Origin: Callorhinchus milii | Lineage: Eukaryota | Direction: 5' to 3' | Assembly: GCF_018977255.1 (NCBI RefSeq) | Contig: NW_024704743.1 | Coordinates: forward strand, 22,508,001-22,572,000 | Length of the DNA stretch: 64,000 nucleotides | Shown here: one piece after another, positions 4,519-61,705 of the stretch | How the letters are laid out: every line of letters starts with the position of its first letter | Numbering within the stretch: position 1 is the first letter of the stretch | Notes under the pieces: model-generated | Told to the model about the DNA's origin: nothing | What the model saw: only the letters and a program-made list of their open reading frames with translations | Databases searched by the model: none | Program-made: the position numbers and the translations under genes

Positions 4519-4676
4519 ATACTGGTTTAGGATGGCAAGGACCAAGGTCTCGTTCAGCTGAACAGCTGAAGAATGGAAATGTGTGCTCTTCACCTTTGAT
4601 GCCTTCTAGCAATGTAAACATTGTATGGTCTACAATACCTGATCAAGTCACCCTAGGTCTACATCAGCCCCCAGAG
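4519..4676 (+). CDS. OSBPL10: ORP10 linker exon (xTGLGWQGPRSRSAEQLKNGNVCSSPLMPSSNVNIVWSTIPDQVTLGLHQPPE); absent from ORF track
   Basis: Acceptor ttttttttggtag at 4517-18, donor GAG|gtaaga at 4677. 158 nt, open frame, ends in phase 0 matching the next exon. Peptide resembles ORP10 LGWHGSKSHSTEQLKNG...NITW. Confidence 0.85.
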
Positions 4677-5884
4677 GTAAGATGAATAAGCTGTTACACT
4701 GTGAGCATGTAAATAAAGAATTTTGTTTGCTGTTATTTTGATTTTAATCATGATTTCCTTGTACCCTTAAATTAAAATTGGAGAAATTAAGAATATAGTT
4801 GAATTGTGATTTAAGCAGCAACAACAGCTACTTGCATTTAACTAACACACTTCAGGTAGAGCATCAGAGGATTTTTGAAGAGAGGACGATGATGAATTTG
4901 AAAGGGAGAGGAACATTGCTGGATTGTAGAGAAAGTTTGACAGCATTCACAAGCAAAGGGGTTGGGTGGGGGCAGAAGCTAGGTGAGAAGTTGAGTCAAT
5001 AGGAGTTGGTGGGTTTCATATTGGAGATGAAGGTGGAAAGGGATGATGGAGAAATGGGACAAAATTGTGGAAAGCATGGTCAGTTGAAGAGGTAGGGCGC
5101 TGGGGGAGGAGGAAGATAGTAAAATAATTGTTGGATTTAACATAGCACCTTATGTTGTTGAGATGTCTCAAAAGCACTTCACAGGATATACTGTAGAGTG
5201 TAGTGACGATTTTGAAGGTGAAGGTGGCAGTTGATTTGCGGACAACAATGTCCCACAAACGCCCTGAAGAGAATGATCAATTTTTATCTATGGGATTGTT
5301 GGCCAGGACATCAGGAGAAACTCTCTGCTCTAGGAGTTGCAGCTGGGTGAATTTCATTGATTTTTGGCCGATGACCTCTTCACATTTAGAGTTGAAGGAG
5401 CTTTAAGGGGAGCGTGAGAGGAGATGACCAATGGTGGAAGAGAATAGCTTGGCGATGTTTTTGGTCTCCAGGATGAGGTTTCGTGTCAGAAAGAGTGAGG
5501 TGATCTTTTCTGGGGGAATAAGGCAGATAGATTTGGCAGTGAACCTTGATGCAGTTTTTAATCCGGCCTCCGTGACCCCATCACCCCCACCCTCGCCGGG
5601 CTCCAATGGTTTCCCATCCCAAGATTAATATTTGAAGGAGTAGGCTGCTGTCCCGTGGGGAAATGGCATGGATGGCAGGTAGTTGAATGAGAAAACACAT
5701 TTGTGAAAGAAGACTATGAAGTGACGGAATCAATATTGATTATTTGAGGAACAAGTTTGGGGTCTTGCTAACAAGTTTACGATTATTTGACTTTTCCAGC
5801 AACTGGTTTGCAGATCAACTGGAATGCTATAAGGAAGTGCCAGTTTTGTGTCCCATAAGTGTAAATACCTTATCTGTTTTCGTC

Positions 5885-6903
5885 TTGTTCGACCCTCAAC
5901 TGACCTCTCTCCTCCATATCCATACCATGATCTGTTCTGCCTTCCCCCACCTCCGCAACATTGCCCGACTCTGCCACTAGCTCACCCTCAGGGCGCCAAA
6001 ACCCTCATACATGCATTTGTCACCTCAAGGCTCGACTACAGAAACGCTCTCCTTGTCGGCCTCTGCAGCTCTTCCCTCCACAAGCTGCAGATCATCCAGA
6101 ATTCTGCAGCTCATGTTCTCTCCCGCACCAGGCTCTGACCCCATCACCCTCGCCCGGCTCCAATGGTTTCCCATCCCTCAGGGGATAGAATTCAAAATCC
6201 TCGTCCTCACTTTCAAGGCCCTTTATGGCCTTGCCCCCTCCTACATCTCTGCCCTGCTGATCCCCTATCAACCTATAATAATAATAATAATCCTTGCATT
6301 TGATATAGCGCTTTTCACGTCAGGAGGACGTACCAAAGCGCTCACAGAACACACTGTAAAGTGAATTGACTGTATATTTGTGGGCGAACGCGGCAGCCAA
6401 TTGCGCACAGCAATGTCCCACAAATAGTCGCAGATTGAAAATGAAATGAAAATATTATTGTTTTTTGTTTTGGAGGGATTATTATTAGGCTCTGTGTGGA
6501 GTAAGGAAACTTGCCCAAGGTTTCGCCCTCTGCCTGGAATTGAACTCGGGTCTCTCGCTTGCAAAGCGAGTGCTCTAACCACTGAGCTACAGGACTCCGT
6601 CCACTCCCTCCGCTCAGCAGGCTCTGTCGGTGGCCGGGCTTTCAGCCTCTCTGCCCCCACTCTTTGGAATTCCATCCCACAATCCCTTCACCTTGCTCCC
6701 TCTCTTGCCTCCTTCAAGGCACGACTCAAGACCCTCCTTTTTGACCGTGCCTTCAGCCGACCTCCTACCCCCTCTACCCTTCCTTATCCCAACCCTGTCC
6801 TCCAGGCTCGGGTCCTGATCCCTGACTGTTTCAGCGCCTTGGGATACCCTCCCGACGTGAAAGGTGCTTTACAAATGTAATTTTGTTGTTGTTGTTGTTG
6901 TTA
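5885..6903 (+). mobile_element. L2-clade LINE 3' fragment (interrupted by SINE)
   Basis: Translates HAFVTSRLDY, LQIIQNSAA, LQWFPI, FKILVL, GGRAFSLSAPTLWNSIP; ends in AATGTAATTT(TGT)n. Confidence 0.9.
6275..6598 (-). mobile_element. tRNA-derived SINE inserted into an L2 fragment
   Basis: Full head-to-tail copy; flanks rejoin as L2 sequence colinear with the uninterrupted copy at about 12240. Confidence 0.92.
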
Positions 6904-7584
6904 TAAGTGGATTTTCATAGGTGTGTTGGGACAGATGGGGGGGTGGGAGGGAATTGCAAAACTACCTGGTGTAATAAGATGTTGCAAAACATCTGGACAT
7001 AGGATCTTACAAATGAAATGGTGGCTCTTGCTAATTTATAGCAGCTCACTGAAAGTGAGGCATGGGCAAGTAACCAAACCTTTAAACCAATCCAGAGTCT
7101 AAATGTTCTTTCTATAAACTAGCAATACCTTTTACTATTTTTATCCATAATTTTTGCCTGATCAAGTGTGTGCACTAATTCAAGACTCATCAATGGGCAT
7201 TAATTAATGGGTATTTACAAAACAGAGTTTGATAGATAAATGCAAGGTACTACATATAGGATCCAAGCATAGGAAACACAAGTACTCCATAGATGGGATA
7301 ATCATGCCAATGGGGAAATTGAAAGAGATCTAGGGATGTCAGTTGACTCATCGCTCCCAATGTTCACTATGGTCAATGCGGTTTGAGGCAGCAACAAACA
7401 AGGATTTGGGGCTATATTACTTAATTATTTCAGTACAGATCCTCAGATGGCATACTCGGGCTATACAGTGCTCTGGACAGACCAGACCTTGAGTACTACA
7501 TACAGTTCTGGGCAGCCTAGGCCCTAGAGACAGTGCAGTGGAGAGAAAGAGGATGATCCCCAGTGTTAGAGGAATGAGCTATGA

Positions 7585-8292
7585 CCTGGGCCAATAGAAA
7601 AATGTGGACATTTTTGCAAACAAAATTGCAGTGAATCTTGTGGGGGATTGTGGAGGCCTTTCTTAAACTTTTCGGGGAAATTGTTGGGGCTGATTGGTGC
7701 TATTGGGTACATTTTACTTCTACATTTTTTCTCCTTATTGATAAAAGACTAAACATAAGGAAATAACACATTTTATTAATTGTTTCTTTAACAAAGACTG
7801 AGTGGCCATTTTGTATGGGTGTGGGCAGAGGGGGGCACTAGTGAGGCTACCACCTCCTGGATCTCTCTCACACACACTCACGCGCAGAGAGAGAGACACG
7901 CGCAGAGAGAGAGACACGCGCAGAGAGAGAGACACGCGCAGAGAGAGAGACACGCGCAGAGAGAGAGACACGCGCAGAGAGAGAGACACGCGCAGAGAGA
8001 GAGACACGCGCAGAGAGAGAGACACGCGCAGAGAGAGAGACAGAGCGAGACATGCGCACTCACAGTCACCGATAATCACAACAGCGGGGCCTCTGAGTGT
8101 AGACCATATACCCTTTGCACCGCACTGTGCATGCGCATCCGGAGCCGCTTCGCCCACAGTGACATCGGGTAAACAGCGCGAGCGGCCCACGGGCCAGAAA
8201 CTGCATTTGTGGCAGGGTTTGTAGTGGACGACGAGGTCCATTGTGGCAGAAAATACGGGAAAGGTGTGACCGCACTTTTCTGTTGGCCCAGG
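7585..8292. mobile_element. Non-autonomous DNA transposon, 23-bp TIR, 6-bp TSD (CTATGA)
   Basis: Left TIR CCTGGGCCAATAGAAAAATGTGG versus reverse complement of right end CCTGGGCCAACAGAAAAGTGCGG (20/23). CTATGA at 7579-7584 and 8293-8298. Confidence 0.85.
7879..8040. repeat. Minisatellite (CACGCGCAGAGAGAGAGA) x9
   Basis: Nine perfect 18-bp units read directly. Confidence 0.97.
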
Positions 8293-9214
8293 CTATGAGA
8301 AACAACTAGACAGGCCAGGACTCTTCAGTCTTGAGAGGGAACGACTCACAGAGGTGTAAACCCAGATCAATACTTTGGGATCCACCAAGACAGTAGAATA
8401 AAAGGACATGAGTTCAAAGGCGTAAATGTTATTTTCAGGGCAGATGCTAGGAAGCTTTTCTTCATTCAGTGGATAATTCTAGCAGTAATTTGCACCTTTT
8501 CATGTCATCAGACATCTCAAAGACATCAGACATCAGACATCTCTCTTCACAGGATATACTGTAAAGTAGATTGAATCTGTTTTTTGTGGGCATAATTAAT
8601 GACTAGATCAGGTTATCAGTTAGAGTGTTTGAGGCCAGAACATTCAACTCATTTGAAAAGCAGTTTGATGCTGTGATGGGGGTTGATAGGATGGATATTG
8701 TGGAAGAATGAGATCAGATAAGCCAATAAGTCTTCTTATCCAACAACAATTTGCATTTTTATAGCGTGCTTCATGTGGAAGCATCACAAAGCTCTTAAAC
8801 TCCAAGCCAGGCAGCACAAATGTTAATGGAGACCGACTCCCGAAATTATCATAGGTGTCAATCATGATGGTCTCCTTGCTAATGGTGTGTTCAAAGCCCT
8901 CAAGCCATTTGGGGTGCAAACATTGGTCTGGAAATCTTTTTGAAGATATTAAAAGGCTCAGTGTACTGTTGGCTTTCTAACATTAAAATGTTAAAAACAG
9001 TATTGGTTGTGTTGTTTGGCTTGGTACAAAGTGATGTTGAAAGGAATGTTAACCAGGCACTCAGATAAATGCAGTTAAACTTCTAGTAAATTTCAGTGCC
9101 AGAATGTTACTTTCTCAAAGATGGTATTTGGATTTTAGCTTGGCTACCGTCAGTATGAGCTGTGATGAACTGTTCATGTTCCTAATATACGTAAATTACC
9201 TTGATTCCTAAATT

Positions 9215-9650
9215 CAGTGCAAGGTAGTTATATTTGCAGATGTTAACCAAGCTGGGGACGGACAGACTGTGGAATCTGAGGAAGCAGCCAAGGTCTTGCA
9301 AAAAGAGATCTAATATGTACCTGGCCTGATCATTGGAAAATGTAATTTAATACAGATAAATGCAAGGTATTTCAAATAGGAACTAAAAATAGCAGGAATA
9401 TGTACTTTATAGCTGGGCTAAAACATGCTGAGGGGTGAGTTGAAAGTGATCAGGGTTTCGTCATGTCTAAACAGTGTGAGTAACAATAACCAAAACAAAC
9501 AGAAGCTTTGCTTAACCAATTAGGTTCTGATTTCCAGATGTCATGTTTGGCCACAGGTAGAGTTGTGTCTACAGTTTTGGTTGCACTCACATAAGAATAG
9601 TCCATGAACAGTAAGGAGGAGAGGCATGAGGATGATCTCCAGTTTCAAAG
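9215..9650 (+). mobile_element. Degraded CR1 RT fragment. CR1 3' fragments also at about 14200-14460(-), 17740-17920(-), 21085-21395(+), 29415-29630(+), 37765-37970(-), 47370-47490(-)
   Basis: TTTGCAGATG..ACCAAGCTGGGG (FADDTKLG-like) and TTTAATACAGATAAATGCAAGGTA (FNTDKCKV). Confidence 0.65.
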
Positions 9651-10176
9651 GGATTGTTTTTAAAAGTGGAGTTTAATATAACATATAACTCTCACTTAAT
9701 GTTGTTGGATATGAAAGATTTGAGGATATTTATTCATGTTATAATAATAAATAAAAATATTTATTATTATGTTCTACAAAATAGCAGCTACTTGTATTAT
9801 AGCACCTTTCACATAAGGATAAGCCTTAAAAGCACTTGCAAAATATAATTGCTAAGAAATGAAATTAATCTTGTTGTGTAGACTATAGGCAGCTTACCTG
9901 TACCAGCAACATAAACAACAAAGATATGAGGGGCCTATTAATTTGAATTTGGGATGTTGAGGGAAATATAAACTGACATCCCAAAGCAGTGCTAGAGGCG
10001 TGTTGCATTGTCGGAAGTGCTGTCCCTCAGATAAGACATTAAACCGGGGTCCCATCCACTTGTACAGGTGGATATTAAAGATCTTGAAAACAGAACGGAG
10101 TTTCTGCTGGTGTCCTGGCCAATTGTTTCATGGTAATTACTGTGCACAAATTGGGCCACCATGTATGCCTAGAAAT

Positions 10177-10503
10177 AGTCCTGTAGCTCAGTGGTTAGAG
10201 CACTCGCTTTGCAAGTGAGAGACCTGAGTTCAATTCCAGGCAGAGGGCGAAACCTTGGGCAAGTTTCCTTACTCCACACAGAGCCTAATAATAATCCCTC
10301 CAAAACCAAAAACAATAATAAATTGGTCATTTTCAATCTACGACTGTTTGTGGGACATTGCTGTGCGCAATTGGCTGCCGCGTTCGCCCACAAATATACA
10401 GTCAATTCACTTTACAGTGTGTTCTGTGAAGCGCTTTGGGACGTCCTCCCGATGTGAAGCGCTATATCAAATGCAAGGATTATTATTATTATTATTATTA
10501 TTA
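10177..10503 (+). mobile_element. tRNA-derived SINE, short subfamily
   Basis: A box TAGCTCAGTGG, anticodon loop TTTGCAA, B box GTTCAATTCC, (ATT)n tail. Confidence 0.92.
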
Positions 10504-11504
10504 CTCCTGGAAAGTGCTTTGAGACGCTTTGATAACATAAGGTGCTATAGAATGCAAGGATTATTAATGATTGTGATTATTTTTGTGCCTGAAATTGGGT
10601 TTTCCCAAGGCAATAATGGATTTATAATTGCGAGAACCAATGATTAGAAGTAGTGCACAGATGGTAAACCTGAAAAAAATGCTGTGAAAATTGTTTATGG
10701 AACTTTGCAGGTGCAGATTAGCTGCTGTGTATGCCTACGTGACAACATTTACTTTCATTCCAAACCCATTTTATTTGTAAAAGGCTTTGAAACTATCATA
10801 TGGAAATATAACAATTTGCACTTCTCAGAGCTCTTAACAGTGGGGGAGCTTGACTCCGAGCCAGGGGAAGTGGGGAGGTGGCCATAAGCACGGTCAAAGA
10901 GGAAAGTTTTCAGGTGGGACTTGAAAGAGGGGAGAGGGGGGGCAAGGCGGAGGGATTGAGGGAAAGTGTTTCAGAATTTTGGGGCGTAGTGGCTGAAAAC
11001 ATGACCTCCGATGGTGGGGTGGAGGGTGCGGGGGATGAGCAGTTGAGCGCCGGGTGGTGGAATGAGGAAGTCGGAGAGGTAGGGAGGTGTCAGGGAGTGA
11101 ATGGATTTCACTCCGTTGGAGGGCGCTATATAAGTGCAAGTTGTTGTTATATTCCATATCATAGTGTATAAATATGGTATATAAATGCAAATTATAAGAA
11201 ATTATTACTAATCTCTTCAAGGAGTTCACAATCATTAGGTGAAAAATATACATATATATTTATAACCAAAAATCAACCATTATACTATAGACCTCAGCAG
11301 TACCCCAACACACACTCTCTGGTCCCTAAGCCTTGGCTCTTTCCAACCTGCGCCTAATACTTTCTGGAATTAGGTAAACAGGAGACGTCCCTCCAGGGAG
11401 AGAATGTGCATTCCATTCCAACGGTCTATCTGAATTTCCATGTATAGGTGGGATGCCTGGAACTCTTGTGTGTTTGATTTGGATACTCTTAAGCATGGTG
11501 AAGC

Positions 11505-12590
11505 ACTGTCTCGTGCGGCGTTCCTCAGGGCTCTGTCATCGGTCCCCTCCTCTTCACCTTCTACATGTGACGTCATCCGCAGACATGGGGTAAATTTCCA
11601 CATGTATGCAGATGACACCCAACTCTACCTCTCTCCCTCCACCCTGAAGTCCAGGACGACTGGCGTCCTGACTGACTGACTGCCTGTCCGACATCACGTC
11701 CTGGACGAGGGACAACTTTCCCTAACTCAACGTCAGCAAGACCGAGGTTCTCCTGATTGGCTCGCGCCAGCGCCTTCGCACCACAGGCGCTGGCAGCATC
11801 AGCCTCCACGGCTGCACACTCAACCTCACTAAGCCAGTCAGGAACCTGGGTATCTTGTTTGACCCTGAACTGTCCTTCTCCCCCACATCCGCGCCATGAC
11901 CGGCACTGCCTATCACCACCTCCGCAACCTTGGCAGACTCCGCCACTGCCTCACCCCTCAGGCTGCCAAAACCCTCACCCACGCATTCATCACCTCAAGG
12001 CTCGATTACAGGAACTTCCTCCTCATCGGCCTTCCCAACTCTTCCCTTCACAAGCTGCAGATCATCCAAAACTCTGCAGCTTGTGTACTCTGGCGCACCA
12101 GGCTCCGTGACCCCATCAGTCCCACCCTCACCCGAATCTACTGGCTCCCCATCCAAGAGCATCGAGTTCAAGATCCTCGTCCTCACCTTTAAGGCCATCC
12201 ATGGCCTTGCCCGCTCCTACCTCTCTGACCTGCTGCCTCCCTACCAACCTGCCCGCTCCCTCCGCTCATCAGGCTCGGTCGGGCCTGCTCCATGTCTCCT
12301 GCCCTACCATCGGTGGCCGAGCTTTCAGCCTCTCTGCCCCCACACTCTGGTACTCCATCCCACGGACCCTTTGCCTCGCTTACTCCCTTGCATCCTTCAA
12401 GGCTGGTCTCAAGACCCTTCTCTTCGACCGTGTCTTTGGTCTCCCTCCCACCTCTCTGCCTTCCCTCACCCCTCTGCCTTCCCTCACACCAACACCACCC
12501 CATGCTCGGGCCCCGACATCTGACTGTTCAGTGCTATGGGACATCCTCCCGATGTGAAAGGCGCTCTATACATGTAATTTTGTTGTTGTT
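11505..12590 (+). mobile_element. L2 LINE 3' ~1.1 kb (RT YADD motif to tail), frameshifted
   Basis: [23 protein letters not shown], (TTG)n tail. Confidence 0.92.
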
Positions 12591-14874
12591 GAAGGGTTTC
12601 CTTATGTGTCAGACACCCGGCTGACCAAAAAGGAATCAAGCCCCATCATCATACTCTATGAAATGTTGTATTACATTTAACCATCAGATGGCACTACACA
12701 CAACAAATTATTTAAAAATAAGCATGTTTTAGAAGTCATAAAATGTCAGTTTTACAGAAACTTTAGTGCAATTTTGCTTATTTTAAATATAGCTTTTTTC
12801 CCCTATCTATCACTGCTATCAAATTGCAACAAATATTAGTATACATTATCACTTAGAAATTAGGGAAGTCCATTTTCATTTGTATTAAATAATGTATCTA
12901 TCACCAACTCACCCACAAAGTTAAACCTACTGAATTGCTTTAGTGTACTTTTTTAATGCGGTCCCTGTTTGTATGACTTGCATGTGTTTTTAACTGTGCA
13001 ATTGATAGATAATTGCCATGATATTGGAAGCAATTCATCAAGAAAAGTATAAACTTCCTGCGTCATCCAAAGCACTTTTAATGCAGCAAAAAACAAGCTC
13101 AATATGATTCATACCCTCTATATTTGCACTTAGTGAGTATGAACCATGTTCCTGAAATTACCTCCTTGAGTGCTGTCTGGATCAGAGCTCCAGCATGATT
13201 CATCCCCATTTGAAATCTTTTCTTTCTACTTTCCATTTTGTGGAAGGAGAAACTTTCAAGTTTGCTTTTCTAACGATATTTTTAGCATAGTTGATAATTG
13301 CCATACAGGTTGTTGGTTTTTTTATGCGTCAAAGAAGGAAGATTGCTCATAAATGTATGTATTTGTTGGTACTGCTGGAGGTCCAACGGTGTTCTGGCCA
13401 AATAAACTTGTCCAAGGCATGGGAAGTATTAAAATTGGAAAAACTGCCTTTTATTGAGCTTCATTGCAGTATTGCCTCTGAGGTTTTGGACATCTTCCGA
13501 CATTTTTAAATATTTGCCCTTTGGTAAACTTTAGAGGGTTGGACCTTATTCTTCTCCCACTCGTAGTGTAATAAGCAGCTGCAGTGTGCACTAAATGGAT
13601 TAAACTGGAACAAATTATTTGGTTTCCAGCTGATGTTTTGACCGCTATTCCAACCTTGCTCTTTCTGAATATAGCCTTGAGTGTTATTGCTAAAATCTAT
13701 GCTTGTCCCCTTCTGTGATCTTAACTGGTTTACTGGATGTTCGATCTGTGTGTTTTGCCCACAAAATACACAGTCAATTCACTTTACGGTATATTCTGTG
13801 AAGCGCTTTGAGACATGATAAAGCTATTTCAAATGCAAGTATTATTATTATAATTAATGTAACAGATTGCTGTGAAATGCTCAAAGTTTTGATGTTTGTG
13901 AATCACCCTTATGTCAGCACTAATATAGCAAAGTTCGGTAAGTGGTTGCAGCTGATTGACACACTTCCAGTTATTTTGCCTGCTGCACAGTGTTGGTACG
14001 TGTACGTGGCCTATTGTTTCCATATAAATTGTATTCAAAATTAACGGTGCGTAGATATAGCCTTAAATTGGATAATTTGTTGTTGAGTTTTTATCAGTGC
14101 CAGCATGTGGGCTGACGGCTACTTGGCCACGCAGATGCTGTGGTAGCGTCTCAGTCTAACCATTTTGCGCTGTGCATTTATTATTGTTGTCAGAAAATAC
14201 AAGAGGGGGTATGAATCTAGAAGGCCATTCAGCCATGATCTCACCTTTCCACACTACTCACTCATCCCATTTCAGCATCGAGTTATTTCTTAAGTGAGTC
14301 TAGCATTCTGCCCTCCATCCTTTCCCTTACTGGTAAGTGAATTCCAGCTGATAATATTCCTCTGTGGAAAGAAATGCTTCTTGGTGTTTGCCCTGAAATT
14401 GCATTCCTAACCCTGAACCTGTATCCTCCTGTCCTGCTAGCTTGGCGTATCTTAAGCAATGTTTTGAGTTTGCTTTTATTCTATTTAGTATTTTTTGGTA
14501 TGAAGTCTCTTCTGAGTCAGAAGCACTTTACCAAATGTAATGAATATTACACTAGGGATTATTATCCATACTGCGTTTCTCTGCAATATGTCTAGGGTTT
14601 GAGCCACTCCCTTGGTTTGGCCTTGGTACACTGTAGTACTAATAGTCTATACACTTGATATAGCTTTATCACGTCTTTGAGATGTCTCTCCACCTAGATA
14701 CATCCAGTGGGTGGCCACTGTACAGCCTGAGCATGCTTTTTAGTGCTCTGAACTGATTAATCAACGTTCTGTTACGGTTGTTTATTGACTTGCGCTATTT
14801 TGACATGGTGAGTAGTAATATTTAATAATAATGATCCTTGCATTTGATATAGAGCCTTATTGCGTCATCACAAT

Positions 14875-15123
14875 GTGGAGTCCTGTAGCTCAGTGGTTAG
14901 CGCCTTGCAAGTGGGAACGATTCCCGGCAACAAGAAAGGTTGGACATGTTTCCTTGGTCCCTCAATCCATGGCTGTTTGTGGGACACTGCTGTGGGTAAT
15001 CGGCTGCCGTGTTATCCCACAAAATACACAGTCAATTCACTTTACAGTATATTCTGTGAAGCGCTTTGAGATGTCTAGAAGATGTGATAAGGCGCTCTAT
15101 CAAATGCAACGATTATTATTATT
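14875..15123 (+). mobile_element. Degraded, internally deleted tRNA-derived SINE
   Basis: Head GTGGAGTCCTGTAGCTCAGTGGTTAG plus core and tail, with deletions. Confidence 0.8.
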
Positions 15124-16701
15124 GCATTTCCAAGTGCTTCACAGGATTTTACTGTGAAGTGTAATGATAATATGTATAGACAGATGTGGCAGCCAATTTA
15201 CGCACAGCAAAGTCTTGCAAATAGCCATCAACTGTGTGATCAACTTGATTTGAGGGATTGTTGGCCAGAAAGTTTCATTTGATTTTTCTCTTACCACTGT
15301 TGTGCTGATAGTTAACCTCAGATGGTACTGAAACAGATGACTCCATTGGAACCTAGGAGTTTAACTGAGGGGGAATAATCAAAATAGACAGTGGTCTACA
15401 CCCATTTTAGGCAAATAATACTTCTCAAGCAGCTACCTGAAAAGCACAAGCTCCAAACATTAACGTTGAATATTGTGAACATAATAACATAATTTAATGA
15501 TATGCAAAATGTTATACAGAATTGATAGCATAATTCTTTAGTTGTAAGACAAGATACCTGATGCATATGAAATTTCGTATTATTAATTCTTACCACTGCA
15601 GACCTAACACAAGTTTGTATAAATAGGGGAGGGGGAGACTTGTGGGTTGTTGTGGCAGTCCTGCATAATAAAATATGACTGCAGTTAGGCTTGCAGTACT
15701 TTAAACTCCCTAGTTTATGGTTTTATTATACCTTTGGAAAAGCATGATAACCTCGGTATTTCACAACAATGAGGACTCACTCAAGTATCGCATACAGTTA
15801 TCACATGACTTAACATAGACGGCGTTTGGTATTCAGCCCAGTTTCTGTGAGCATCTCAGAATTCCACTGTGCTTGTCTTCTTCTTTTATGTTGATGCAAA
15901 AGACGATTTATGCTGTCCTCAGTGGTAAGTACAGAGGTGGGGGGTGGCGGGGGGGGGTGGGGGGAACTGAAGGTGGTTTATTCAGCAGAGGATTTTTTTG
16001 GGGTATTGTTCCTCCTTATTTTGCTTTAAAGCTTAAAAACCGATGTCATTTTGCAATTGATTAACAACAATGTTGGGATAAGTTAATTTAGACCTGCCTT
16101 AAGTTTTTTTTAAAAAACATTTTAGCTGCGACCTGTATTGATTTTACTTTTCATCGGCTGATTATTTGTTGATACTGCGAGCCTGAATGATGTGCTTAAT
16201 GTTTTCAACGCCTAAGTGGATGCCTGGATTTTCGTGAGAGGATACTTGTCTTTATTTGTTAAGTGTGAATTTTCTGTGGAGGTATATCAGGTGAAGTTGT
16301 TTGTGATACAAGTGGTTTAAACAATGGTTTATGTGTCACTAGATTCCTTTCTGTGGCAGCTTCTGGACTATTGAATCTTAGCACATTGCTGCCAATGAAT
16401 TATATCGGTAGTTACATAAGAGTGCTGCCTTCATCCGTTTTTCAAAGTGCTGTACATTTCAGCTCCAGTACTAAAATCTTTGGTTATTCCATAATTTTGC
16501 CCTGTGGAAAGCAACATTTCAAAAATGTACTTAAGGGGGAGCATGTTGAATATTGCTACATTAATGAATATCATATTAGCCCAAGTATGAGGAACAACTT
16601 CAGAAGCTGGATAAATATGCAACTCGGCACATTGTGGAGTTTTTTTTTAATGCCGCAGGTCTTTTTCCACCGATGCTGACTAGTGGGGCTGGAAGATATT
16701 A

Positions 16702-16877
16702 GAGTAAACTGATAACTCATCACTCCAAGGGTATAGGGCTCAGTGATGAATTATCTTGAGTGGCGAGTTAGGTTTGTGTATAAATACATAAATAAATGTG
16801 GTCGGAATATTGACAGCATGCTGATTTAAGTGGTAGAGACAAGTTAAGAACGGGGTCAAGTAATCAGGAGTTTACTG
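16702..16877. mobile_element. Second copy of the 178-bp MITE, opposite orientation
   Basis: Interior is a diverged reverse complement of 47720-47840 (GAGTGGCGAGTTAGG...ATAAATACATAAATAAATGTGG); ends GGAGTTTACTG|TA. Confidence 0.8.
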
Positions 16878-18299
16878 TACGTCCCTAACCCTCAAAAGTT
16901 GCTTTTCTGACCTTGACATGATGAATGAGAGAAGCATGGATGGCTTGCCCCATAATGTTTTCTCACTGAGGAAGCGTTTTACTGCACTAAACCTAATCCA
17001 AAGATTTAACTTTGATTTTTTTTCCCCAGCGGGAAAGGAAAATTTACAATCCCCTTTTTGTGTTTGTTAGGCGTTCCTGTCAAGATCAGGAACTTGCTTA
17101 TCGGATAATATTATGGATTCAAAACCATCCCAACACTTGGCATATCTCACTGAAGCACTGGAAGTCATGAGTTAATGAGGGATATATGTGCAATTGTTGT
17201 AGGGTATGTGACATAAGATGTGTTATGTTGGTTTGTGGAGATGCAAGGAGAAGGTTCTCATTATCTTTAACAAAGTATGGCAACCTATAGGAATGCAACA
17301 GCAATGGTCTCAACAAGTTTAGAGTGTTTCATTCGGAAGGTGTGGCCTGTTACGGATGTTGCTACACATTTTGGGATATAACCCAGCAACAAATTGTATT
17401 TCAGTTTAGACAAAGGGATTGCAGGAATCTGCATCATTTCGGAAAGATCAAACGGCTTGCTGCATCAGCAAAACATGCATAACATGAATGATCCAACATC
17501 TGATGTAGTGAGAAGTTCATAATGTAAAGTGATGTTTAGGATTACATGCACTTGATCATTTCTAAAAATATCCCAGCATAAAATGTAATATTGGTGGGCA
17601 TAAAATATTTTGGGATATACCTTCATCCCTAAATAAATGCTTTTTATAAATCATTAATGATTTTTAGGTAAACGTCTGTTGCATTGAGGTTATCCACTGT
17701 TCAATTTTAGCAGGATTTTAATTGCAGGACACTTCACTATCACAGAACCGTTGAAAATGACAGCACAGTTGTCTGTGCTGACTCTTTGAAAGAGCAATCC
17801 ATTTAGTCTCAATTGCTTGCATTTTCACCATACTCTTGCAGTTATTCCTTTTTAGAAATCTGTCTAGTTCCCTCTTGAAAACTAATATGGATCCTGCCAT
17901 GATCACCTCACCCGATGTAACAAATCTCTCCTAATCTCTCTCTTTGCTGCCTTGCTAAATACTACGACTACTAGTTACAATTGGACAGTTAACTCTATAT
18001 TTTATGGTATATATAAAAGAAAAGCAGGAATGTAAAATAATAAAACCCCATGAGACTTGAATATTCCTTATTGTAGCATTGAACACAATGAAAATTACAG
18101 CTGAATAAGATGTCTGGATGGGCATTAACACTTCCATCATACCGCTGCAGGAAAGAATTTTCATCGGAAATGTAATATGGCAGCACAAGAATATCATACT
18201 CCAGCTACATGCTGCAAAGAAAAGATGTCTCAAGGTTTTGGAGGTTGGCAACAGGCTATCTCTGATATCTGGGATATCCAGTTGGCTGCTGCCCTCATC

Positions 18300-18745
18300 A
18301 ACAGCAACAACAACATTTCATTTATAGAGCGCCTTTCACGTCGGGAGGACGTCCCAAGGCGCTGTACAGTTGAGTCAGGACCCGAGCAGGGGGGAAATGG
18401 TCAGGGTGAGGGGAGGGAAGGGAGGGAGCGAGGAGGGGGTAGAGAGTCGAGAGGGGAGCTGAAGGCACGGTCAAAGAGAAAGGTCTTGAGACCGGCCTTG
18501 AAGGAGGAAAGGGAGGAGGCGGCGAAGGCACTGGGGGATAGAGTTCCAGAGCCTAGGGGCTGAGAGGCTGAAGGCCCGACCACCGATGGTAGGGTGGTTG
18601 GGGCGGGGGATGTGGAGCAGACCGGAGCCAGAGGAACGGAGGGTATGGGCAGGTAAGTAGGGGGATAGTAAGTCAGAGAGGTAGGAGGGAGCAAGGCCGT
18701 GAATGGCCTTGTAGGTGAGGATGAGGATCTTGAATTCATACTTTT
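18300..18745 (-). mobile_element. Young L2 3' end
   Basis: FKILILTYKAIHGLAPSYLS...GGRAFSLSAPRLWNSIP; (CAA)n tail at the left end. Confidence 0.9.
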
Positions 18746-18894
18746 GCTGGATGTCAAGATTGCATTTGCATAGCCCTTTCACCTTCCATGTCCCTCAATT
18801 TCATATGCTGGAATGATAGTTGCTGCTGATTTCAAGGACATGTCAATTGCACTATTTGTAATATTGTAAAAATGAAGGACATCTGTCTGAATCG

Positions 18895-20990
18895 TGGGAG
18901 GGCGACCGAAGGCACGATCGAAAAGGAGGGTCCTGAGACTGGCCTTGAAGGAGGCAAGGGAGGAAGCTGACGTTCAGTTGGAGAAAGTTGTCCTTCGTCC
19001 AGGACTGATGTCGGACAGGCAGTCGGTCAGGACGCCAGTAGTCCTGGAGTTGAGGATGGAGGCAGAGAGATAGAGTTGGGTGTCATCTACATACATATGG
19101 AAATTTACCCCATGTTTGCGGACGATGTCAACAAGGGGGAGCGTGTAGAGGGTGAAGAGGAGGAGACCAAGCCCTGAAGAACACTGCACGAGACGGTGCG
19201 GGGGCTGGAGGAGAAGCTGTTTGCTGAGATGAAGTGGAGGCAGTGTGAAAGGTAGGACCTGAACCAGTCAAGGACAGAACCTTGAAGGCTGAGGTGGAAG
19301 GAGAGGCAGTGGAGGAGGATTGAGTGGTCCACGGTGTCAAAGGCGACAGAGAGGTCGAGAAGGCAGAGGGAGCCCTAGTCGCACATGGCCAGGATGTCAT
19401 TTGTAACCTTGACCAGAACAGTTTCCGTGCTGTTGGCAGCATGGAAATCCGATTGGAGGGGCTCATGGAGGGAGTCGGATGAGAGGAAAGAGCGAAGCTG
19501 GGAGGCAATGGCTCTCTCAAGGACCTTAGACAGGAAAGGGAGGTGGGATATGGGCAGGCAGCTGGATAGCTGTGATGGGTCAAGGGTAGGTTTCTTCAAG
19601 TGGGTGATAGTGGCTGTTTTGAGGGGGGTAGGAACAGTGCCAGATGACAGGAAGAGGTTGATGATGTCGGCGATTAGTGGGGCAAGGAGGTGGAGCTGGG
19701 ATTTAAGGAGAGGGGATGGGATCCAGGGAGCAGGTGGTGAGCTTCATGGAGGATATGGTGGTGATGACAGAGGAGGGGGTGACAGGTTCAAAGGTGTGGA
19801 AGGAGGGATGGGTAGTGGTCGGAGTGTGTGGGGGTGGGTAGGGAAGGGGTGGAAGTTGGGAGGGCAGTGGCAGCTGAGCGGATTCCCTCGATTTTGGACT
19901 CGAGGAAGTCCAGCATTTTCTGGTAGTCGGAGGAAAGAATCTGAGAAGTGTGGCGGGGAGGGCAGAGGAGCAGGTTGGTGGTGGAGAACAGGAGCCTGGC
20001 AGAATTAATCTGGAGTAGAAGGACGATTTGGCCGAGGCAAGAGTAGGGCGGTAAGTTTTGATGTGTTCCAGCCAGATGTGCTGGTGGACCGTTAGGCCAG
20101 ATTTGAGCCAAGTGCATTCGGCAGCCCACACCTGGCACTTGAGCGAGCGGAGGTGGCTGGTGAATTAGGGTGAGGATCGGGAATAGGAGGCAGTTCGGGG
20201 GGTGATGGGGGCAAGGGCATTGAGTGTTGTGGAGAGGATGTTGTGAAGGAGAGTTAACGCAGAGGATGGGTTGGTGGGGGAGGTGGTCCAGAGGGGGAGG
20301 AGTTCAGAAGACTCCAGGGCAATGGAGAAGGATTGTGGGGAGATCTTCTTCCACAGGCGGTAGGAGATGGTGGTAGGTTTGGAGGCAGTGGGGAGAGGGA
20401 TATAGGAGTTGAGGGAGATGAAATGGTGATCAGAAATGGCCTTGTCGGTGATGGTGACATCCGAGACGCTGAGAGATCACCAGGTCGAGCGGGTGGCCGT
20501 GAACGTGGGTAGCAGAGTGGATGTGGAGGGAGAGGTTGAGAGAGGAGAGGAGAGCGGAGAAATCTGAGGCGATGGAGCAGGAGGGGGTGAAGTGGAGGTT
20601 GAAGTCGCCTAGGATGATGAAGCGGTAGGAGCTTCATCAGATGTCAGAGATGAAGGTGGGGGAGGATTTTGGGAGGTGGTAAATTAGGAGAATTTTTAGT
20701 GAGAGATGGGAGGGATGGTAGAGGGCAAGGTGTTCAAAAGAGGGAAATAAACCGGCGGAGTTGGGGGATAGGGCAAGTGACACCCTGGAGGTGAGGGCCA
20801 CCCCACCGCCACGATGGTTGGTGCGTGGGGCATGGTGGTAGATATAGCTGGATGGTGTGGCCTCAGTGAGGGGGAAGGTGCCACCTGGGGTGATCCAGGT
20901 TTCCGTGAGGGCCATATTATCAACATTCTCATCGAGGATGAGATCATTGACGGCCAGGGTCTTATTGCAGATGGAGTTATATACACAGAA
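18895..20990 (-). mobile_element. L2 LINE ORF2 remnant with APE endonuclease and RT N-terminal part, internally deleted
   Basis: NSICNK...MALTETW...HAPR...GGGVAL (APE), LDPIP, KKPTLDP...[44 protein letters not shown] in shifting frames. Confidence 0.92.
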
Positions 20991-22898
20991 GTCACTGGGA
21001 ACACCCAGCAGGTCAGGCAGCATCCATGGACAGAGGAAAATGAGTTAGCATTTCAGGTCTATGACCTTTCGTTCTAACAAAAGAGGTCTTTAAAATTATG
21101 AGGGGTTAAAGTCAATGGGGTGAAGTTATCACTGGTCAATAAATCCGTGACTTGAGGACATCAATGTAAGATAGCTAACAAATGGGGAAGTTCGGAGAAT
21201 TTTTTTGGTTAGGATATGGAATGCTCGGCCGGGAGCGATGGTTGAGGCACAATCCATATTAGCTTTCAAAAGGGAACAAGTTACATATCTAAAAAGGAAC
21301 ACACTACACAGGTAATGGGAAAGGGCATGTAAATGAGACTGAAAGGATTGCTCTTTATAGAGCCAGCACAGACACGATGGGCTGAATGTCCTTCTTCCTC
21401 TTTGACTACCTCGGTTACCTCCCCTTTCTCCCCAGTTCGGTGTCAAACCCTGTCATTGTTAAGTGCTCCGAATCGCTGCCCTGCGGGAAAGATGCTATAT
21501 AAGTACAAGTTGTTGTTGTTGTAAATTTCCTTGTTTCTAGTGGTCGAGGTTGGGAACTCGTACATATGCTTCAAATTTGCATCACTCCTCTCAGTTGAAC
21601 ACTGAACTTTAGGTTTTCAAAACACTCTCAAACCGTAATGTTCAGCTGCTTTGCATTATGCACGAGTGTGCTGAGTGAAGTCCTATTGTGTGCCTAATGC
21701 TTTAAAAAGAGTTTAAAACATTAGGGAAGGGTGGGGAGAAGAAATAAGCTACTTGGTTGAGAGAATAAACAATGGTTGAGAATATGTCGTATAACACTCC
21801 TGGATTTCTGGGCAATGTGATGTGGCATTGAATGTGTTTCCGAATGTTTTCAGAGCTTTTTTGTTGGGCGTTTTTTCCATGTGAGAGTTTGAAATAGAGA
21901 CTGACTCAACCCTGGGCATCTCCGTCCATTTCTCCCTCATAATTTAATGATCACATTAAAATGAGAGAATGCTACAGCACAGTAATGAACTGTTCAGTGC
22001 ACTAAGTTGGCATTGGTAGTTTTCTTTGCATGAGCCAATTGGCCATCCTTTACTTTTAGAAGAAAACGGCAATGACCGAGGTCAGAGAGCAGGTCCACCG
22101 ACCTGACCTTTTGACCATCATCAGGTCATGGTGGTCAGAGATGAGGGGAGTCCAAATAGAATAGAGAGAGATTCTGTGTCCCCCAAACAGACCTTAAAAT
22201 AATTTGAAAAATATGACTGATGCTCTAATTATAAATCCAGTTTGCCTGCATGTTTTCTAAGCCTCTGATATGCTATTGCGTTTTTTTTTGGCAGAGAGTG
22301 ATTAAACTTGGAAGTGTTATATAATTTTCTGCAGTTTTGCTCCCTGTTTAATTTTTGATATTTTGAGTGGGCGGTGTGAATAAATGTCAGTGGAAATGAA
22401 TAGCGGTTCAAAAAAATCTCCTGAAGGTTGTGTACGCTTTATTGACACTATTGTATTGATCACTGCTGAATGACAGCAGCATCCATTTAACTGTTCATTC
22501 CATTAAAAGCCCTTTCATGCCTGGGCAGCCAATTTAGGGTTACAGTTACACGCCTTTTCTTAATGAAAAAAAATCGGTGCGACGGTCAGCTTTTCGAAAC
22601 ATGTTGAAGTGCTTAGCGGGGGAAAAAAGAATTACTGGGATTTTTGCAAATCTGATGCCCACGTGTGCCAACAGATGTTCTCAAACTTGCTTTTAGAAGA
22701 AATTGTTTCAGACTTACCCACATGGACGTGCTTGAGAGCCTCCTGCGATTGCTGTTTGTAATTAAGGCTGTGAATCCCGAGGTCATGTGACTATGAATGA
22801 AAAGGATGGCTTCACATTTGATTGACTTCACAATCCAGTGAAGGGGAAAATAAAGGAAAAAGCCAGTAGTCAGCTCAGAGTGGGACTGCCGCCAGCTT

Positions 22899-22991
22899 AT
22901 GTGTCTGCCGTTAGTAAACTCATTGACAGTACCTGCAATTACAATGAGGTCGAGCTGGATGAAAAACAAAAGGGTTTTGCAGCCGTGCAGG
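22899..22991 (+). other. Candidate alternative first coding exon (MCLPLVNSLTVPAITMRSSWMKNKRVLQPCR)
   Basis: ATG 22899 and ATG 22944 (ACAATGA) in one open frame ending at a strong AGG|gtgagc donor in phase 0, 249 nt upstream of the phase-0 acceptor at 23241. Confidence 0.4.
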
Positions 22992-23240
22992 GTGAGCTCT
23001 CCACCTTTCATTTGCAGTACAGTGGTTGATGTAGTTAACAGAATAATGGAGTGTAGAGACTTACTTAAAAGAATATTCCTTGAATACTATTCTTTAGTAT
23101 GTTCAACGAGAAATACAGCACAATAGAAGGAATAAAGCAAATGATTGTTCCTTCAAAAGTAGCAGTACTATGTTGACTGACTGAAGGGTTTTTCTTCCCC
23201 ACTCCACTTAAGTTTTAATAATTCAATGTCATTTTTCTAG

Positions 23241-23387
23241 CATCAAGCTCCCGAGGTGATAAATCCTGAAGATGAAGTGACAGACACTGAAGACAATGTA
23301 GAAGAAGACTTAGGAGTTATGGAAGATCAACGTAGTGTAATCCTTCACCTCCTTTCTCAACTGAAACTCGGCATGGATCTTACCAGG
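23241..23387 (+). CDS. OSBPL10: ORP10 exon ([49 protein letters not shown])
   Basis: atttttctag acceptor, AGG|gtatgt donor, 147 nt, phase 0-0. Carries the [10 protein letters not shown] start of the ORD. Confidence 0.93.
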
Positions 23388-24264
23388 GTATGTAATCAAA
23401 TCGAGGATAAAGCTGGTGAATTTAAAAGTGATCGACATTGACTGATGCATCTTTTTTTGTACATTATTTCATATAAATTGTTTTGGACAGAAATCAAAAA
23501 ATGTTCAGTCAGTTTAACTTTGCCACGCAGGACCAGGTGCACAAGCAATTTAAATTTGCTACATTTAAATCGAGATCGTACATCTCCAATCTAACATCAT
23601 AGTTGTATTCTACATTCCCTGAAAGTAATAAGAAAAACTGAATGACAGTAACTGGAAAACCACTGCTCTAAATGAACAGTAATCAGCCAGTTATACAACA
23701 GCATTTTGTGAGCACTTGTTCTCTACCATTACCTACTGCATGCAGCACTCGTATGCATCTTTAATATCAGCCATTTCAAAACCTTTTAAGCAGGATTCTG
23801 TTGTGTACTAAGCTGGTTAAATGTAGTTATAAGCCATTTAGTGTGAGGTTTTATTGTTAACAGTTGCTGATTATTTTTTTAAGCTAATTTTACCCCGTTG
23901 GGTGTTGCACTATTAGCATACCATGTAGTAAACAAAATTAAGCATATTCAAACACAATTCGATACTGAAAATCTACAAGAAGCAGAAACAATGATAAGCA
24001 CAAAATCTTTGTGGAGCATCTTGTAGTGCTTTGAAAAGCTCCAGGATGGAGATGCTATGCTGCATTTCAGGCAGTTCATGTTGTTTTATGTCTGATGTAC
24101 AGCAATTAAGCATTGTTCATGTGCTTTTCCACACTGCCCAATGATTCTCTGTGTGCAGTACACTCCAGCCTGAAGGAACAACAACAGTTTGCACTTGTAT
24201 TGCGCATTTGAGTAGGAGGGAAAATGTCTCAAAACGCCTCAAAGGAATGTCGAGTACTGTTAGT

Positions 24265-49443: not shown

Positions 49444-49939
49444 GTGGTGCTTCCAACATTTATCCTGGAGAAGAGATCATTGCTGGAAATGTATGCAAAT
49501 TTCATGGCCCATGCAGACATGTTTGTGTCAATCACATCAGGTACCACACCCGAAGACCGAATTATCCGCTTTATGGAATACTACCTGACTGCTTTCCACG
49601 AGGGACGAAAAGGAGCAGTTGCAAAGAAACCCTACAATCCAATAATTGGAGAGACGTTTCATTGCTCTTGGGATGTGCCTGAGGAAAAAGTGAAAGCCAA
49701 CAAGGCTAGCAACACTTTAGCTATTGCCAAGGACAAACCCAAGCCCCAGGCCTTGGACTCCAGCAAGGACCAGACAGATTGCTATAGAGTGAGATTTGTA
49801 GCCGAGCAGGTTTCCCACCATCCACCTGTTTCAGGTTTTTACTGCGAATGCAAAGAGCGGAAAATTTCTGTGAATGCACATGTGTGGACCAAGAGCAAAT
49901 TCATGGGAATGTCCATAGGGGTCACCATGGCAGGAGAAG
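49444..49939 (+). CDS. OSBPL10: ORP10 ORD exon ([17 protein letters not shown]...EQVSHHPP...GVTMAGE)
   Basis: aaacgcag acceptor, GAAG|gtatga donor, 496 nt, phase 0-1. Contains the OSBP signature EQVSHHPP. Confidence 0.96.
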
Positions 49940-56076: not shown

Positions 56077-56159
56077 TCTGTTTCACGTGACTCGATGATA
56101 CGTTTTGCACCAAACCTTGTCACTACCCACTTTCATTAATCTTTTCTTGGTTTATCCAG

Positions 56160-56346
56160 GTGTCCTTTTCCTTGGTGAACACGAAGAAGAATATGTTTTC
56201 ACACTGCCTTGTGCTTATGCACGATCCATTTTAACAGTGCCCTGGGTTGAACTGGGGGGTAAAGTCAGTATTAACTGCGTCAAGACTGGCTATTCTGCTA
56301 CTGTCACATTCCACACCAAACCATTCTATGGAGGGAAGGTACACAG
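56160..56346 (+). CDS. OSBPL10: ORP10 ORD exon ([36 protein letters not shown]...KPFYGGKVH)
   Basis: tttatccag acceptor, CAG|gtaata donor, 187 nt, phase 1-2. Confidence 0.95.
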
Positions 56347-59662: not shown

Positions 59663-59845
59663 AGTTACAGCCGAAGTGAAGCATAACCCCACAAATACTA
59701 TTGTATGTAAGGCGCAGGGTGAGTGGAATGGAACCCTTGAATTCACATATAGTAATGGGGAAACCAAAGTGATTGAGACTACCAAACTGCCAATAATAAG
59801 AAAGAAAATACGGCCCGTTGAAAAACAAGGGCCATTGGAGTCTAG
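59663..59845 (+). CDS. OSBPL10: ORP10 ORD exon ([24 protein letters not shown]...KQGPLES)
   Basis: cttgcag acceptor, TAG|gtgagt donor, 183 nt, phase 2-2. Confidence 0.95.
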
Positions 59846-60763: not shown

Positions 60764-60917
60764 ACGCTTATGGCAGCATGTGACAAATGCACTGAAAGCT
60801 GGCAATATCGATGCAGCAACTGAGAACAAGCACCTTCTTGAGGAGCGACAGAGGGCAGAGGAGAGGCAGCGAGCAGCTTCAAGTACTGTTTGGAAAGCAA
60901 AGTATTTTCTAAAAGAG
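60764..60917 (+). CDS. OSBPL10: ORP10 ORD exon ([31 protein letters not shown]...WKAKYFLKE)
   Basis: ttttcctctccag acceptor, GAG|gtaaaa donor, 154 nt, phase 2-0. Confidence 0.94.
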
Positions 60918-61660: not shown

Positions 61661-61705
61661 GGAGATGGTTGGATATACTATAATCCTCTCTGGAAGATAC
61701 AGTGA
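61661..61705 (+). CDS. OSBPL10: ORP10 last coding exon (GDGWIYYNPLWKIQ*); absent from ORF track
   Basis: ttctgtaatag acceptor, phase 0, TGA at 61703-61705. GDGWxYxxPLWK is the typical ORP10/11 C-terminus. Confidence 0.92.
   Translation, partial: GDGWIYYNPLWKIQ

Follow-up and report, generated by a model that had tools for sequence, protein, structure and literature searches.

ORP10, the product of OSBPL10, has been described as a protein of PH domain plus ORD which, where the ER touches the Golgi or endosomes, depends on both the PH domain and ORP9 to function. In the accessible portions of three reviews, short forms are given for ORP1, ORP4 and ORP9 only, and ORP10 appears as PH plus ORD (PMC8264513, PMC7385082, PMC12833988). 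The question raised by the present locus is whether this gene also yields a PH-less short ORP10 from an alternative first exon inside one of its introns, driven by an internal promoter possibly under MiT/TFE control, as an original prediction had proposed from the DNA alone. The sequence analyzed is a 64-kb stretch of Callorhinchus milii (GCF_018977255.1, NW_024704743.1, 22,508,001-22,572,000, forward strand), hereafter the window, within which all positions below are numbered.

The OSBPL10 locus and its candidate first exon

Judged by its sequence, the gene in the window is OSBPL10, encoding ORP10 (subfamily VI). In a search with an ORD exon of the window, shark and ray ORP10 came first, at 85% identity, and the top named matches were all ORP10. 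In a tree that included P0243 and left out P0025, P0235 and P0236, the window is sister to four elasmobranch (shark and ray) ORP10s, the group of all five having support of 100/99 and that of the four elasmobranchs 90/90. The PH exons of OSBPL10 fall upstream of the window, and seven exons of the gene were mapped within it by tblastn, all on the forward strand. The last upstream exon of long ORP10, a linker exon missing in the short form, lies at 4519-4676 with AG/GT ends. It is followed by the first shared exon at 23241-23387, which carries the acidic D/E tract and the ORD lid and reaches high contig depth in all four sequencing runs examined; by an ORD exon at 49444-49939, assigned from sequence as well as tblastn, with EQVSHHPP and a 12-residue motif; by further ORD exons at 56160-56346, 59663-59845 and 60764-60917; and by the final coding exon with the stop codon at 61661-61705.

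The coding part of the candidate alternative first exon occupies 22944-22991 on the forward strand and comprises 16 codons, MRSSWMKNKRVLQPCR. The elements from which this exon had been assembled were all found in place, namely ATG 22899, ATG 22944, the donor AGG/GTGAGC after 22991 and the acceptor before 23241. Removal of the putative 249-nt intron between them (22992-23240, forward strand), defined from sequence by the donor GTGAGC and the shared acceptor, with no joint seen in contigs, leaves a phase-0 join from 22991 to 23241 that keeps the frame. The frame is closed upstream by an in-frame stop, the stop-to-stop stretch being 22854-23126. Translation had been proposed from either ATG, and the second is the one that stood: ATG 22944 has A at -3 and is backed by relatives, whereas the upstream in-frame ATG (22899-22901, forward strand) has a weak context, with C at -3 and T at +4, and was rejected as the main start because relatives resemble the window only from Met 22944 on.

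On a simple matrix the donor at 22991 scores 8.1, and the six true donors span 6.8-10.5. Equally strong GT sites number 14 among the 1083 in the intron; three of these have an ATG in frame that is preceded by a purine at -3, and of the three the 22991 donor alone yields more than three codons. The chain 22944-22991, 23241-23387, 49444-49939, 56160-56346, 59663-59845, 60764-60917 and 61661-61705 is open for 419 aa and is 78% identical to two short fish ORP10s, P0010 and P0035.

The block around the exon had been called repeat-free, and 21375-23240 is without a match elsewhere within the window, a comparison that is less than a full repeat screen. Farther upstream, an 18-nt unit forms a perfect tandem array of 9.1 copies at 7879-8042, and the minus strand of 19200-21245 holds broken reading frames with strong GC skew, which we take to resemble a LINE endonuclease region.

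Conservation of the exon in fish and in mammal-type models

A search with a single ORD exon gave, among the matches listed, two 422-aa ORP10s, one from lungfish (RefSeq isoform X2, P0010) and one from a blenny (P0035), both of which start MRSS-F and join the same exon as in the window. A profile built from those N-termini (best 120 of 485 matches) brought in records from goby, plaice, halosaur and gar, two from Fundulus, and the second of two proteins derived from Logan contigs, and a wider profile search (70 of 70) added P0198, starting MRSSW. The first 40 residues of P0010, used as a query, gave only three candidates. The exon-peptide motif occurs in 11 of the 265 collected proteins, and lungfish, gar, a halosaur and percomorph fish all keep the peptide ahead of this shared exon. 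Among the matches listed in these searches (120 of 2700, 120 of 485 and 70 of 70), none is a copy from a shark, ray, coelacanth, amphibian, reptile or bird. The supporting records are mostly gene predictions, in frame by construction; one gar model, P0166 (1678 aa), fuses OSBPL10 with GADL1 and is probably a joined prediction of adjacent genes.

Scored against seven fish exon peptides, the window 12-mer at 22944 ranked first among 2398 ATG-started and 127,924 six-frame 12-mers (25.7, the next 18.0); five of the seven had been chosen with a pattern knowing the window peptide, and P0010 and P0035 were found blind. The likeness to relatives begins exactly at Met 22944, and in all six records that extend upstream the residue before Met is E, A or V, that is, G at -3. 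Loss of the ATG frame in relatives had been named as an outcome that would speak against the exon, and what was found is that peptide and frame are both kept among fish.

Two of the fish records come from assembled contigs: P0114 is a 414-aa ORF on a single Logan contig of 2858 nt, and P0126 a 419-aa ORF on one of 2167 nt. Both span this exon through the ORD and group with gobies in the tree. An ORF running from the exon to the ORD on one contig of such length implies spliced RNA. Both were called from the second Met, so that their 5' ends are unseen.

Two further models, P0250 and P0248, which we take to be mammalian, carry a form of the shared exon whose highest scores, within the set of named rows, are with ORP10 of birds and turtles. 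P0250, which presumably contains an Alu-like translation, places a 13-residue piece, M-R-W-S-W..., ahead of the shared exon, and the lungfish piece also has 13 codons; P0248 reads the same DNA in a shifted frame with a later donor. Pfam gave no match in either model, and the Atlas gave no usable match for P0248. A single DNA string accounts for both models across 58 nt; of about 100,000 random pairs, one agreed across 13 residues. The core common to this DNA and the window, 22944-22964 on the forward strand, agrees, within codons 2-7, at 14 of the 17 bases that can be determined (p about 1e-6). First positions are kept in 6/6 cases and third positions in 5/5, against 3/6 for second positions. 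Since all three changes fall on second positions, the mammalian constraint may lie on the DNA and not on the peptide, and the pattern appears to fit a DNA-level or shifted-frame constraint better than an ATG protein frame. Coding use of the exon in mammals is rated a little better than even.

Transcript evidence, rival readings and promoter motifs

For Callorhinchus milii, 13 sequencing runs were found, none of them recorded as RNA; four were examined, as assembled contigs only, so that their RNA status is a guess and uncovered stretches carry no evidential weight. The canonical join from 4676 to 23241, and with it the long form from the same gene, is present in contigs of three of the four (X1, X3 and X5), in which the 3' end of exon 4519-4676 matches loose contig ends before 23239; the start of exon 49444 likewise matches loose ends after 23389 in X1, X2 and X3. 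The junction from 22991 to 23241, proposed as a check on the short form, is absent in contigs of all four. If made in this species, the short isoform is at most minor in the examined samples. The claim of a PH-less short ORP10 accordingly stands in part: peptide and frame are conserved and other fish have annotated or contig-derived short proteins, but the RNA joint was not seen in its own species.

Low-depth contigs do cover the block, at 22443-23225 in X1, 22410-23005 in X2 and 22686-22900 in X3. The X2 contig reads through the donor by 14 nt, and that of X1 covers most of the 249-nt intron. This cover, of depth 2-4.5, was discounted as promoter evidence because other intron stretches, at depth 2.9-7.9, are equally deep or deeper. 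The start of the next intron (23388-23700) reaches 7.5-7.9 in X1 and X2, above the block upstream, which fits pre-mRNA or DNA background. One low-depth X2 contig carries a 7-nt insertion and a 1-nt deletion at 22551 and 22566, either an allele or an error.

These observations bear on what the conserved stretch is for. It could be a regulatory element or non-coding leader in which the sequence around the ATG is preserved as DNA, with little or no short protein made here and perhaps likewise in mammals. Such a reading, which we consider distinctly unlikely, draws on the first and third codon positions kept and the second changed against mammal-type DNA, on the other frame and later donor of P0248, and on the contigs, in which no spliced joint was seen and the block has low-depth unspliced cover in three of four runs. 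It is harder to reconcile with fish peptides that vary conservatively (W/F, S/T), with an exon that keeps its phase while ranging from 13 to 18 codons in most records and reaching 24 in one, the lungfish and mammal-type exons both having 13, or with ORFs of spliced length on Logan contigs. The shifted frame, 'EVEL', was rejected as coding in the window: it has no ATG and, across this donor, reaches a stop after 25 codons. Pure coincidence, a chance ATG-donor pair beside chance promoter motifs, is very improbable and largely refuted. The 14 donor-like GT sites of the intron and the chance frequency of CCAAT, CACGTG and the 8-mer M-box leave room for it, yet the peptide tops 127,924 12-mers, two fish peptides had turned up at protein position 1 in a blind search, and the mammal-type DNA identity of 14/17 is hardly accidental.

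The exon might instead serve mainly as a cassette, or as a hybrid of first and internal exon, lengthening full-length ORP10 by about 17-32 residues where the linker meets the acidic tract. Two Fundulus models, P0122 (residues 322-338) and P0123 (390-407), do have it as an internal exon in which a single additional residue precedes the Met, and from these sequences the exon may be a hybrid in teleosts. In the window, open in-frame AG acceptors occur upstream at 22862, 22880 and 22895, but their 15-nt tracts contain 1, 8 and 6 pyrimidines, where the real acceptors of the gene have 10-12; moreover, a cassette would have no need of an unvarying Met preceded by a purine at -3, and the lungfish, blenny, goby and P0198 records start at the Met of the exon. 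We rate mainly internal use as quite improbable. Eleven ATGs lie in 22470-22806, and together with the poor acceptors they favor first-exon use with transcription starting downstream of about 22810. Taken together, the exon is real and anciently conserved, and an ORD-only ORP10 most likely begins with it. As far as sequence can tell, it is conservation, not the motifs, that settles the case.

The promoter motifs had been placed correctly: CCAAT at 22529-22533 (forward strand), CACGTG at 22660-22665 (assigned to neither strand) and GTCATGTGAC at 22782-22791 (forward strand). CCAAT, with 1.4 expected per 500 bp, and the CACGTG E-box, which lacks CLEAR flanks and is seen five times against 6.3 expected per 64 kb, are both at chance frequency and were rejected as promoter evidence, as was CpG enrichment (o/e 0.68, only seventh among the window's 500-bp bins). 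GTCATGTGAC, 153 nt before ATG 22944, is an M-box/CLEAR-like candidate MiT/TFE site. The 10-mer GTCAYGTGAC occurs once in the 64-kb window against 0.11 expected, for a motif chosen after the fact, and the 8-mer M-box/CLEAR core three times against 4.25. A perfect palindrome, TCACGTGA, at 56083-56090, 70 nt before the acceptor of exon 56160, is a reminder of chance occurrence. The motifs by themselves prove little.

According to the title of one paper (PMC7806166), tfec reportedly specifies iridophores. The M-box within the candidate site, TCATGTGA at 22783-22790, is given as bound by MITF in the portion of PMC6355916 available. In a table of PMC3706446, zebrafish osbpl10 is enriched in iridophores (18.67 RPKM versus 0.26, 0.55 and 0.08), and according to the accessible text of PMC7307565, one of four comparisons on TFE3-fusion sarcoma shows OSBPL10 raised 138-fold over skeletal muscle. 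The iridophore and sarcoma signals are gene-level hints, and neither names a promoter. One good motif and this indirect expression in other species make MiT/TFE control of the candidate promoter through the M-box possible, though rather unlikely. A broader scenario, in which jawed vertebrates including humans inherited from their common ancestor a MiT/TFE-switched internal OSBPL10 promoter supplying a free Osh6p-like PS/PI4P shuttle to lysosome-rich or pigment cells, and which would explain the iridophore and TFE3-fusion sarcoma signals, is more doubtful still and must be called unlikely.

The predicted short protein and its place among known ORPs

The most likely course of events in Callorhinchus milii would begin at an internal promoter with a probable start between about 22810 and 22940. 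Once spliced from 22991 to 23241, the transcript would be read from ATG 22944 to give a protein of 419 aa, made up of a 16-aa tip, the acidic D/E tract, the lid and the full ORD. The join falls at residue 373 of the long shark form P0001, past its PH domain (84-177 by Pfam) and its helical linker (about 248-309); the short form is without PH domain, helical linker or FFAT and retains the acidic lid motif. Pfam finds Oxysterol_BP alone in P0010 and P0035.

Within the 419-aa chain, LPTFILE, a mark of PS carriers, stands at residue 68, where it aligns to Osh6 and ORP8, and EQVSHHPP, with its tandem His, at 186. The acidic tract has a net charge of -12 over residues 17-45 and aligns with the D/E motif of Osh6 ahead of the lid; it is also present in paralogue-like matches and is therefore not special to the short form. 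The N-terminal tip of the window protein is basic, at +5. A conserved Cys as lipid anchor was rejected, the Cys being present in the window but in only six of 12 relatives. The structural model of the lungfish protein is of moderate quality (pLDDT 63.7) with a disordered tip; its best structural matches are ORP8-ORD and Osh6, the latter with a TM of about 0.67-0.71.

How such a protein might behave can be approached through the published properties of its parts, each taken from sections of the sources cited. ORP9 binds the ORP10 linker, the isolated ORP10 ORD is cytosolic, and the human ORP10 ORD exchanges PI4P and PS once artificially recruited (PMC8624802); recruitment to TGN and endosomes needs the PH domain (PMC8693358). 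Having neither a PI4P-binding PH domain nor the linker for ORP9 and ER contacts, the short form should be untethered. The D/E motif lets Osh6p leave anionic membranes, is present in ORP10 and absent from ORP5/8, and was suggested as not critical in tethered ORPs (PMC6718676); an untethered short form would explain its retention, although paralogue-like matches carry such a tract as well. Short ORP10 may then resemble yeast Osh6p in its action: a PS/PI4P exchanger without a tether, which the acidic lid motif frees from anionic membranes and which an adaptor or the basic tip directs to its target. Given that the isoform exists, this analogy is about an even call.

If the short form is real, it would be spared by knock-outs aimed at 5' exons, and both forms would be counted by 3' probes or C-terminal tags; the exon supplies exact primers and an N-terminal peptide for testing. 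A literature search, with most subscription journals outside its coverage, found no paper that deals with this exon or with how it is conserved. The title of a 2005 paper by Fairn and McMaster (PMID 16234851) is said to name human 'ORP10S', implying a short human ORP10. PMC5344536 mentions 'ORP10S' once, and the word 'isoform' is absent from PMC5344536 and PMC13081691. Databases already contain models of a short ORP10, and ORP10S may be an older name for it.

Its closest counterparts are lungfish P0010 and blenny P0035, which share the first-exon peptide and join of the window (422 versus 419 aa, 78% identity); these are database models, on which the literature search gave no functional study, whereas the window exon belongs to a cartilaginous fish that branches outside sharks and rays. 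Like ORP1S, ORP4S and ORP9S, short ORP10 would be a PH-less product of a long ORP gene. It differs from ORP9S, which retains FFAT, and from ORP1S, which has a cholesterol/PI4P-type ORD: short ORP10 lacks both FFAT and linker, and its pocket is of the PS type. A nearer functional parallel may be Osh6p and Osh7p, ORD-only PS/PI4P exchangers of similar length with a D/E-rich stretch before the lid as in short ORP10. Those two are separate yeast genes with about 29% identity to short ORP10, for which orthology is not claimed, and Osh6p is aimed by Ist2p. Osh6p has been called unique among such exchangers, in the available part of PMC6718676; were the present reading correct, a short ORP10 found from cartilaginous fish to lungfish, and perhaps in primates, would be an untethered PS/PI4P carrier built like Osh6p.
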